A DNA stretch of 64,000 bases from an uncultured cyanobacterium (GCA_963703315.1 OY969811.1:2048001-2112000), one strand, 5' to 3'. Counted from the stretch's first letter, positions 41,436 to 45,242 are shown. Translations and numbers: made by a program. Notes: generated from the letters alone by a model not told the origin.

Positions 41436-42383
41436 ATGCCAAAGGTTAGTGTGATCATTCCTAACTATAACCATGTAAGGTTTATAGAAAAGCGGATTAT
41501 GAGTGTCTTACAACAAACATATCAAAATATTGAGGTTATTTGTTTAGATGATGCCTCAACAGATGGAAGTATCCAAATAATGGCTAAGTTTGAATCTGAT
41601 CCTAGGGTTCAGACAATTTATAATGATGTTAATAGCGGTTCTCCTTTTAAACAGTGGGAAAAGGGTCTGCAAATTGCCAAAGGAGAATATATTTGGATTG
41701 CAGAATCAGACGATTACGCAAATCCAAATTTCTTGGAAACCTTAGTTACGGTTCTCGATCACAATCCAAATGTTGGCTTAGTATACGCTCAGTCTTTAGG
41801 TATTGATGAGAATGATCAATTTATTCGTCATTGGAAAACTTGGACAGATGACTTAGATAGCGATCGCTGGTCACATGACTTTATTAACAGTGGCAAAGAT
41901 GAATGTCAGCAGTACCTAATTTTTAAAAATACAATTCCCAATGCGAGTGCTGTACTTATGAGGCGCTCAATTCTGGATCAAACTGGAAAGATTGATGCAC
42001 AAATGCGCTTAGCTGGAGACTGGTTACTCTGGGCAAAAATTTTGATGATTTCAGATATTGCTTTTATTGCCGAACCTTTAAACAATTTCAGAACGCATAG
42101 TAATGTAGTTAGAAATACAAGTAAGCCGTTTCTAGAATTAGATGAAAGGCTTCAAGTTATTAGTTATATTTCTAAAAAAGTAAATATTCCACATAACTTT
42201 TGGGAAACAGTTTTTGAGCCATCAATAGGATGGTGGATTAGGATGCTATTACGTGGTGAAATCCCATTAAATAAAAATTATCAGATTTATCAATCACTCA
42301 AAAATATTGATCCGCGTATAAACTATCGATTATTTACAATCTTTCTTAAAGCTCTAAAAAACAAGCTCTCCTTACGATTCTAA
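41436..42383 (+). CDS. Glycosyltransferase family 2
   Basis: 'VSVIIPNYN', 'DDASTD', 'IAESDD'. Confidence 0.9.
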   Translation: MPKVSVIIPNYNHVRFIEKRIMSVLQQTYQNIEVICLDDASTDGSIQIMAKFESDPRVQTIYNDVNSGSPFKQWEKGLQIAKGEYIWIAESDDYANPNFLETLVTVLDHNPNVGLVYAQSLGIDENDQFIRHWKTWTDDLDSDRWSHDFINSGKDECQQYLIFKNTIPNASAVLMRRSILDQTGKIDAQMRLAGDWLLWAKILMISDIAFIAEPLNNFRTHSNVVRNTSKPFLELDERLQVISYISKKVNIPHNFWETVFEPSIGWWIRMLLRGEIPLNKNYQIYQSLKNIDPRINYRLFTIFLKALKNKLSLRF

Positions 42384-42386
42384 TAT

Positions 42387-42535
42387 AACGTGAGTTCGGG
42401 TTAAGCTACAAAATTTTAAAAACCAGAACAGTAAAAGCCTCGCAAAGCGAGGCTTTTACTGTTCTGGCTCCTAGAAAGGGTTCGCGTTGCGAACCCTTTC
42501 TAGGAGCCAGTTTAAAATTAACCCGAACTGAGATT
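42387..42535 (+). mobile_element. 149-bp MITE-like element, left copy
   Basis: Ends aacgtgagttcgggttaa...ttaacccgaactgagatt; two internal hairpins. Confidence 0.85.
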
Positions 42536-42634
42536 AAATAATAATTAAGCGATCGGGGGGTAATCCATTATTGGAGCAGACAATATTGTGGTACTTCGGT
42601 CTGGATTTGGATGCGATTTATTTAACAAAAGGAA

Positions 42635-44815
42635 ATGACGATGAATGAAATTCACCCATCCACTAAGGGCAAATGTCCAGTGATGCACGGCGGTGCAACA
42701 GAAGTCAATATATCGAATATGGAATGGTGGCCTAAGGCGCTTAACCTCGAAATTCTGCATCAACACGATCGCAAGACCAATCCGATGGGCGCAGACTTTA
42801 ACTATCGAGAAGAGGTCAAAAAACTTGATGTGACTGCGCTCAAACGAGATCTGCACGCCCTAATGACAGATAGTCAAGATTGGTGGCCAGCAGACTGGGG
42901 TCACTATGGCGGTCTGATGATCCGTCTGTCTTGGCACGCAGCAGGAACCTATCGGATCGCTGACGGTCGAGGCGGCGCAGGGACTGGCAACCAGCGTTTT
43001 GCACCGCTCAACTCTTGGCCAGATAACACGAACCTCGACAAAGCACGCCGCTTACTGTGGCCGATCAAAAAACAATATGGGAATAAGCTCAGTTGGGCTG
43101 ATTTAATCGCTTACGCTGGGACGATCGCCTATGAATCCATGGGGCTAAAGACCTTCGGTTTCGCCTTTGGTCGAGAAGATATCTGGCATCCAGAAAAGGA
43201 TATTTATTGGGGTTCAGAGAAGACGTGGCTTGCCCCCAGTGACAACCCCAACAGCCGTTATTCTGGTGAGCGAGAACTGGACAACCCCTTAGCCGCTGTA
43301 ATGATGGGGCTAATCTACGTTAACCCTGAAGGCGTAGACGGTAATCCCGATCCACTACGAACAGCCAAGGATATACGCGAAACCTTTGCGCGCATGGCAA
43401 TGAACGACGAAGAAACGGTCGCCCTTACTGCGGGTGGTCACACAGTCGGTAAATGTCATGGCAACGGCAATCCTGAACTACTCGGTCTGGAACCTGAAGC
43501 GGCAGATCTCGAAGATCAGGGCTTGGGGTGGATGAACAAAACCCAGCGTGGCATCGGTCGCAACACTGTCACCAGTGGTATTGAAGGAGCATGGACGACT
43601 CATCCCACTCAGTGGGACAACGGTTATTTTTCTCTATTACTAAACTACGACTGGGAACTGAAAAAGAGTCCCGCAGGGGCATGGCAGTGGGAACCGATCA
43701 ACGTTAAGGAAGAAGACAAACCCGTTGATGTCGAAGATCCCACCATCCGTCGCAACTTAATCATGACTGATGCCGACATGGCAATGAAGATGGATCCTGA
43801 ATATCGGCAGATTTCCGAACGGTTCTACCAAGATCCCGCCTATTTCTCAGAAGTCTTTGCACGGGCTTGGTTCAAGCTGACCCACCGTGATATGGGACCC
43901 AAGACTCGTTACATTGGACCTGATGTACCGCCAGAAGATCTGATCTGGCAAGATCCGATTCCTGTGGGAAATACGAACTATGACGTTCAAGCTGTGAAGG
44001 AGAAGATTGCCGCTAGTGGTCTCAGCATCAGCGAGATGGTCAGTACCGCTTGGGATAGTGCCAGAACCTTCCGCAGTTCCGATAATCGTGGTGGTGCTAA
44101 CGGCGCACGGCTTCGCTTATCTCCTCAAAAAGATTGGGAAGGGAATGAACCTGCTCGCTTGGCTAAGGTATTAGCTATCCTTGAGGGTATTGCGGCGGAG
44201 AGTGGCGCAAGTGTGGCGGATGTCATTGTCCTAGCGGGTAATGTGGGTGTTGAGCAGGCTGCTAAGGGTGCTGGTTTTGATGTTAGCGTTCCTTTCTTCT
44301 CTGGTCGTGGGGATGCAACGGATGAGATGACTGATGCCGAATCCTTTGCCGCCCTAGAACCGATCCATGACGGTTATCGTAATTGGCTCAAGCAGGACTA
44401 TGCCGCTAGCGCGGAAGAATTAATGCTCGATCACACTCAATTGATGGGTTTGACTGCCCCTGAAATGACGGTGCTGGTGGGCGGGATGCGTGTCCTTGGC
44501 ACTAATTATGGCGGTACTAAACATGGTGTATTTACCGATCGCGAAGGCGCACTGACGAATGACTTCTTCGTGAACTTGACGGATATGAGTTATACATGGC
44601 GACCAGCCGCTAATAATTTGTATGAACTCCGCGATCGCCACACCAATCAGGTCAAGTGGACAGCGACACGAGTTGATCTCGTCTTTGGCTCCAATTCGAT
44701 CCTCCGTGCCTATGCTGAAGTCTATGCTCAAGATGACAATAAGGAAAAGTTTGTGCACGACTTTGTAGCTGCATGGACAAAGGTGATGAACGCTGATCGC
44801 TTCGATCCGAACTAA
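42635..44815 (+). CDS. katG: Catalase-peroxidase
   Basis: 'CPVMHG', 'WWP..L.L..L', '[12 protein letters not shown]', '[10 protein letters not shown]', '[10 protein letters not shown]'. Confidence 0.97.
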
Positions 44816-44869
44816 TTCTCGGCACATGTCCTCGCGGCGCGATTATTGGCGGCGCGGGAATATGCAAGT

Positions 44870-45018
44870 AACCTTAGCTCGGGTTAATTTTAAACTGGCT
44901 TCTAGAGATGGTTAGCGCGGCAAACCCTCTCTAGAAGCCAAAACAGTGAAAGCCTCGCGAAGCGAGGCTTTCACTGTTTTGGCTCTTAAAATTTTCTAGC
45001 TTAGCCCGAACTCACGTT
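44870..45018 (-). mobile_element. 149-bp MITE-like element, right copy (inverted)
   Basis: Reverse complement aligns end to end with 42387-42535. Confidence 0.85.
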
Positions 45019-45242
45019 AATATAGCAAAACAGAAACAAACTAAAACCCAAGAAGCGATTTGCGGCGCTCCGCGCCGCAAATCGCTTCTTGGGTTTTTTG
45101 TCCTAAGCAAAGCTTTTTTGCTATACCAAAACTAAAAATCCTTACTGGGTTTGTTTTTTAATTCACAAAAGTGTTGTCACACTTTCGTAAATTGGGATAC
45201 TACGAACATAAAGAAAGTGCAGCGCTTTGCGCTGCACTTTCT

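Follow-up and report, generated by a model that had tools for sequence, protein, structure and literature searches.

The window analysed here is the whole 64,000-nucleotide stretch G000:C1:2048001-2112000 of a 4.57-Mb single-contig genome (G000; 42% GC, 8189 HIP1 sites). In it, a katG gene lies between two inverted MITEs, with a glycosyltransferase gene on either side (GT2 to the left, GT39 to the right). The features of the locus, in window coordinates, are as follows.

41436-42383, + strand: GT2 glycosyltransferase, left neighbour
42381-42387, + strand: left 7-bp target duplication TAATATA (as interpreted below); bases 1-3 are the GT2 stop codon
42388-45017, no strand: inferred composite unit MITE-katG-MITE, 2630 bp, without a transposase
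42388-42534, + strand: left 147-bp IS982-type MITE, with two long internal hairpins
42518-42545, + strand: weak sigma-70-like match, its -35 lying within the inner end of the MITE and its -10 within the cargo
42536-42588, + strand: upstream block of katG, candidate promoter/operator, 77-79% to the katG leaders of G022 and G044
42635-44815, + strand: katG, intact catalase-peroxidase ORF, 726 aa
44829-44859, + strand: imperfect GC-rich hairpin 3' of katG; the right MITE starts about 11 bp beyond
44871-45017, - strand: right 147-bp IS982-type MITE, inverted relative to the left copy
45018-45024, + strand: right 7-bp target duplication TAATATA (as interpreted below), overlapping the TATA end of the adjoining TATAGC element
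45021-45125, no strand: palindromic element with TATAGC...GCTATA ends, unrelated to the MITEs
45243-46862, - strand: GT39/PMT-like glycosyltransferase, right neighbour

The stretches 42387-42535 and 44870-45018 are inverted copies of each other with 125 of 149 bases identical, and katG, overlapped by two short antisense ORFs, is the sole long ORF between them, exactly as the first-pass annotation had described. Its 149-bp boundaries need revision, since IS982 ends begin at AC: each element starts one base further in and measures 147 bp, the unit runs from 42388 to 45017, and the outermost A and T, earlier assigned to the element, are part of the target repeat. The AATAT noticed at both outer ends is indeed there, and the flank comparison agrees that neither MITE copy has a repeat of its own, the inner flanks matching nothing; the proposed 5-bp length is wrong, the actual repeat being the 7-bp TAATATA at 42381-42387 and 45018-45024. 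The AC boundary is fixed by a few family copies with a repeat missing its initial T or its final A (for example L132 and L139, which are not A-ended). Both MITEs have imperfect terminal repeats and no ORF of note, and an AC terminus (5') is present at both outer ends and at the inner end of the right copy, the inner end of the left copy being AT.

The katG product scores 1225 bits against TIGR00198 (cut-off 770), and its residues 9-724 align without gaps to PDB 3WNU (1488 bits); by these alignments it is a full-length KatG catalase-peroxidase with predicted activity. KatG enzymes remove peroxide, and from this biochemistry the predicted benefit of the unit is likely peroxide removal. No monofunctional catalase was found in G000, in which katG is the sole heme catalase found; a Mn-catalase lies at C1:2016921-2017592, about 73 kb from katG and outside the window. 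In line with the earlier remark that katG is more GC-rich than its surroundings, its GC of 0.509 and GC3 of 0.50 fall at percentiles 99.9 and 99.2 of the 1659 ORFs of at least 300 aa, against a genome GC3 of 0.38 +/- 0.06.

A hybrid promoter spanning the MITE inner end and the cargo is possible, but a scan returned three sigma-70-like matches against 1.7 +/- 1.3 in shuffles, which is not above background. Next to the inner end of the left MITE, positions 42536-42550 form an AT-rich near-palindrome that is kept upstream of katG in G022 and G044 and that we take to resemble a putative Fur/PerR-type operator. Hairpins similar to the one 3' of katG stand, as judged by eye, behind related katG genes. 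No attC-like fold of the kind that marks integron cassettes was found beside katG in the window; the strict fold rule found none, and a constrained fold detected those in G035. In that genome, a katG homologue with 86% amino-acid identity (L005, G035:C57:1-4575) has palindromes 106 bp upstream (86 bp long) and 135 bp downstream (73 bp long), which we presume from their pattern to be attC-like; with such palindromes on both sides, the G035 katG looks like an integron-type cassette. Boundary sequence akin to that of G035 precedes katG in G022, G034 and G044.

The flanking repeats belong to a family that is rare in this genome and common in its relatives. Each MITE copy yields only two BLASTN matches of at least 80 nt in G000, namely the two copies themselves, and other family ends there are few, including 80- and 97-bp remnants at C1:818637 and C1:1858762. 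With only two full copies in G000, the element is not of the abundance at which chance bracketing of a gene, a concern raised beforehand, would be expected. Solo copies of full-length relatives (78-92%) are numerous in G044, G002, G009, G020, G045 and other genomes, and among the plasmid matches listed, the near-full-length repeat is found only in Pseudanabaena records, from which the best katG match likewise comes; Pseudanabaena is therefore the likely genus of G000. The best matches of the two MITEs in other genomes reach 92.5% and 90.5%, compared with 84% between the two, and a tree with weak support places the copies apart; being closer to foreign copies than to each other, they suggest two separate insertions before the move.

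Family ends also bound complete insertion sequences. In G045, six pairs of exact family ends are spaced 1007 bp apart, and the 1003-bp elements that they bound, with the same terminal motif, encode a 303-aa IS982 transposase (NF033520, 252 bits; cut-off 130). A second IS982 subfamily of 982-1006 bp has MITE-like ends, ACGTGAGTTCGGG(T/A)TAAG (L144, L146, L147, L148, L153, L399, L416, L418 and L419), and its transposases in L144 and L148 score 270 and 269 bits against NF033520. Specifically, the outer end of the left MITE is the same as the IS982 end in L144 over 19/19 nt and that of the right MITE over 18/19 nt, and the two copies are 92% and 88% identical to the subfamily consensus. Judged by these end and protein matches, the katG-flanking repeats are IS982-family MITEs. 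According to the passages covered of a review of the family (PMC7335449), IS982 elements are about 1 kb long, with 5'-AC ends, a DDE transposase of about 290-300 aa and variable direct repeats, include ISNsp1 of Nostoc, and are little studied in their transposition. The commonest end pair of the MITE family, ACCTCAGTTCGGG/ACGTGAGTTCGGG, occurs in 13 of 40 copies of 140-150 bp, and relative to this norm the inner end of the left copy has one further change (terminal AC to AT) and that of the right copy two, so that the inner ends previously called decayed are largely the family's usual second end.

An IS982 transposase match is present in 32 of 48 genus genomes and absent from G000. The search for an autonomous insertion sequence proposed at the outset accordingly has a divided outcome: end pairing, BLASTN/TBLASTX, a protein search and NF033520 found none in G000, a single contig from which plasmids may be missing, and an IS982 partner with 6-9 bp repeats was found in genus relatives. 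An ISMich2 or Mutator-type partner, an initial lead, was abandoned after the IS982 match.

Target duplications were collected from 108 distinct solo elements in which each end could be recognised, after removal of damaged ends, other sizes, non-cyanobacterial loci and the katG locus itself. Repeats of 6-9 bp flank 76 of these elements, 74 beginning with T and 73 ending with A. The MITEs of matching type (n = 37), which are from relatives and not G000, comprise 12 with no repeat, 1 with 5 bp, 18 with 6 bp, 4 with 7 bp and 2 with 8 bp (24/37 at 6-9 bp), and the matching-type ISs (n = 9) comprise 2 with none, 3 with 6 bp, 2 with 7 bp, 1 with 8 bp and 1 with 9 bp (7/9 at 6-9 bp); 21 of 30 sister-type ISs have a 7-bp repeat. 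These rates are rough because the sample consists of top hits and their kin, with non-independent pairings. A solo duplication length other than 5 bp had been named as evidence against a composite; the length is variable at 6-9 bp and includes 7, and a point that does speak against a composite is that 6 bp is the usual length in matching-type MITEs (18/37), as opposed to the 7 bp seen here. A TA duplication of IS630-like type was rejected, the 2-bp match being merely the T...A edge of longer repeats.

When ends of different elements are cross-paired, at least 7 bp match in 276 of 46224 pairs (0.6%) and at least 6 bp in 3.0%. The left flank of the unit has a 7-bp match to 2 of 216 other ends, and the right flank a match of at least 6 bp to none of 216, which puts the chance of TAATATA at both outer ends at about 0.6-1%. 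The first-pass annotation rightly cautioned that the right flank overlaps a TATAGC repeat, as 45018-45024 includes the TATA of that element, and the right repeat would be partly accidental if the TATAGC element had arrived after the right MITE. Among the 76 true duplications, 5 abut or overlap TATAGC elements and 2 include the TATA. It is exactly at TATA that the left flank diverges from the GT2 orthologues, which is what a target composed of the GT2 stop codon and the end of the TATAGC element would give; the TATAGC element was likely present before the unit arrived. Nested palindromic elements occupy 45021-45199, and the TATAGC...GCTATA pattern has 168 matches of 72-172 bp in G000, a count without chance control.

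The neighbouring genes place a seam at the same point. GT2 resembles its orthologues in G047 and G006 as far as the stop codon, and the initial 53 bp of cargo next to the left MITE correspond to the katG-upstream sequence of G022 and G044, with the match beginning at the inner end; in these alignments, the left MITE sits exactly at the seam between GT2-type and katG-type sequence. GT39 is present in 48 of 48 genus genomes, and GT2 has a close homologue in only 3 of 48. GT2 is a low-GC gene (GC 0.345) that stands alone behind a cluster of palindromic elements (41190-42383). Since GT2 is lone here and lies within a glycosyltransferase cluster in G047 and G006, it may itself have been moved. GT39 loci with 1.5-kb flanks from 29 of 47 relatives contain neither katG nor GT2 (0/29); katG was thus not seen at this locus without the MITEs, an arrangement that would have contradicted the proposal. 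No GT2-GT39 adjacency exists in the relatives examined, and because the two genes are apart there, the site is a synteny break without direct comparison. The empty site with a single AATAT that was to be looked for did not appear: an exact-junction scan of metagenome contigs returned 0, and four of ten matching runs (X1-X4) contain no joint cleanly skipping the unit. One X3 joint (42501-45097) was rejected as an empty site and read as a repeat artefact, having a side of 23 bases and 38 foreign letters.

To gauge false positives, 23 stretches from six MITE-rich genomes were searched, and 15 distant pairs gave one candidate site. This site, in G006, has two inverted MITEs that share a 6-bp repeat on their outer sides and lack repeats of their own, and encloses tRNA-like, LysR and PsiE-like genes (named by eye) whose order, together with both neighbours, is as in G000. 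It was rejected as a composite because the enclosed genes are syntenic with G000, making the repeat a chance match, and a 6-bp match in a MITE-rich genome is therefore insufficient. The katG unit differs from it in its 7-bp repeat, rare element, patchy cargo and sequence seam.

We propose that the 2630-bp block was probably inserted in one step as a composite by an IS982 transposase acting in trans. A MITE-rich chromosome or plasmid of Pseudanabaena type would first have received two separate MITE insertions, one on each side of katG, oriented with both better-conserved ends outward; a transposase supplied in trans would then have paired the two outer ends, and katG with its 100-bp leader and 3' hairpin would have been inserted at the TAATATA site at the GT2 stop codon. 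The inverted layout, with IS-like ends outward, would favour movement of the composite over that of solo copies. A one-piece move by a trans-acting transposase had also been the first-pass reading, and the partner family, the 7-bp T...A-type repeat and the seam at the left MITE speak for it, whereas the absence of an empty site and of a second locus speaks against it.

It is unlikely that two MITEs instead inserted independently around a katG already in place, lost their own duplications and came to have matching outer flanks by chance. Such insertions would have had ample material in MITE-rich relatives, where family ends number in the hundreds (588 matches in G044 versus 49 for the control), about a third of solo MITEs (12/37) have no repeat, a chance 6-bp case occurs in G006, and GT2 is patchy and outside its usual cluster; yet they require that 7 bp match by chance (0.6-1%), that each MITE has lost its own repeat (about 0.1 for both) and that the seam between GT2 and katG falls exactly at the left MITE. 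In a variant of this history, the insertions occurred in a MITE-rich donor, and the whole GT2-katG block was perhaps brought in later by recombination. Successive one-ended rearrangements through MITE ends (adjacent deletion, inversion or inter-MITE recombination) that put katG beside GT2 seem very improbable. They would suit a synteny break dense in palindromic elements and a katG leader shorter than in G022 and G044, but by the general mechanics of transposition, a one-ended event either keeps one copy of the target within the rearranged segment or produces copies in direct rather than inverted orientation, and here both target copies lie outside and the inner flanks are without matches.

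Beyond the composite insertion itself, it is conceivable, if doubtful, that IS982 MITEs built a minimal self-contained katG cassette that was carried between Pseudanabaena species and became the recipient's only heme catalase, the cassette having a hybrid promoter to which the inner end of the MITE contributes and terminator hairpins as insulators. If true, no composite transposon made of IS982 MITEs would precede it, and it would be a sign that cyanobacteria of blooms and biofilms shuttle stress genes by way of their hundreds of IS982 MITEs.

Of the 48 genus genomes, 8 have a katG scoring above the family cut-off, and in the seven other than G000 this MITE is never beside it (0/7); G008 has one sister-type IS982 end about 1.3 kb behind katG. 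G046 has only a short broken katG fragment (C16:110967-111183), likely the result of loss. The suggested search for the same MITE-katG-MITE arrangement at other loci gave no second copy, either among the 181 katG loci in the matches listed (duplicates and the locus itself included) or in the best 25 of 986 plasmid matches, and the claim that the unit was spreading katG is thus left with neither a second locus nor an empty site. In a quick tree of 34 proteins, katG groups with G009 and G042 (SH-aLRT 99) within a cyanobacterial group (85), itself nested among proteobacterial proteins. The four-fold-site distance of katG is 0.64 to G009 (enolase 0.71, bamA 0.69, GT39 0.98) and 0.69 to G042 (enolase 0.77, bamA 1.22, GT39 1.40). 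GC was rejected as proof of recent import: the closest genus katG genes have an equally high GC3 (0.49-0.50) and the synonymous distance is like that of housekeeping genes, so that composition shows no recent import.

Between G022 and G044, the shared fraction of four-fold sites is 0.89 for katG, compared with 0.46-0.54 for housekeeping genes, and a P. galeata plasmid carries katG (H30); these comparisons indicate that katG does move within the genus. Plasmid matches H32-H45 are small and medium plasmids from Klebsiella, Enterobacter, Aeromonas and Pseudomonas whose katG genes have about 71-72% identity to this one, suggesting mobility of this katG group in several phyla. The unit came somewhat more probably from another species than from elsewhere in the genome of the same lineage; with no close donor for the G000 katG at hand, relocation within the lineage is a substantial alternative.

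Metagenome contigs bear on its age. Run X1 is near-identical to G000, may be its source and was left out of the comparison. An X2 contig covers GT2 through the left MITE (41433-42531) with 22 differences in 1099 positions, and an X3 contig covers the 3' part of katG through the right MITE (44205-45067) with 45 differences in 863; both come from one other study, and no piece spans the entire unit. As these contigs, 2-5% diverged, each share one junction, both junctions would predate the strain split. Together with the lack of an IS982 transposase in G000, this suggests that the insertion is old and that the unit appears immobile now, apparently stranded.

Known MITE-bounded units offer several parallels. 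In the passages covered of PMC13367494, TIME-COMPs or IMU-bounded units are composites of Tn3-derived MITEs, one of them mobilised in trans, and its authors are aware of no composites in Enterobacteriaceae built from MITEs other than TIMEs. Like the katG unit, these composites have two MITEs, often inverted, around one useful gene over 1-11 kb and direct repeats at the outermost ends, with a transposase in trans as proposed for the katG unit. Unlike them, the katG unit has IS982-type rather than Tn3-type ends and a 7-bp rather than a 5-6 bp repeat, which sets it outside the Tn3-type class; it is also chromosomal, carries katG between MITEs only 84% alike, and is known from one locus only. In Acinetobacter, non-autonomous elements likewise bracket class 1 integrons, although the portions covered of PMC10969869 and PMC6382973 describe these MITEs as identical, 439-502 bp long and plasmid-borne, around resistance integrons. 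The unit shares 5'-AC ends with the IS982 family and differs from it in lacking a transposase, and a word search of the covered text of the IS982 review (PMC7335449) gave neither 'MITE' nor 'composite'. MITECca01 of Cardinium is tied to an IS982 parent by inverted repeats, as are the katG MITEs, but is about 240 bp long and solo, 'composite' being absent from the text seen (PMC9769881). The PluTI restriction-modification unit of Photorhabdus similarly places cargo between IS982 remnants as a possible composite; it differs in having 16-bp direct repeats inside decayed IS fragments of two subfamilies, and no target duplication is described in the passages covered (PMC2875022).

In the literature at hand, which is short of most subscription papers, supplements and ISfinder, no report of an IS982-MITE composite or a MITE-bounded katG was found, and this repeat may already appear in older catalogues of cyanobacterial MITEs. 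New here are the IS982 ends, the host and the katG cargo; MITE-bounded composites are already known, and the case is a single old event. Documented MITE composites mostly combine Tn3-type ends with plasmid resistance genes, and the katG case would add to that range IS982 ends, a chromosomal location, a cyanobacterial host and a gene for oxidative stress. Because katG is the sole heme catalase found in G000 and absent from most genus genomes, the unit could matter for peroxide tolerance. Additionally, an abundant Pseudanabaena-type repeat family is now linked to its parent IS, with the target defined as T...A and 6-9 bp, and the outer ends with this target are a ready substrate for a transposition assay. 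G044 also holds a second, very abundant MITE family of 111 bp (L377-L395), whose ends are of the sister IS982 type and whose repeats are mostly 7 bp long, alongside about 20 intact IS982 copies, and in G045 one IS982 copy is halved by a 2.9-kb insert (L123, C1:484500-489500).
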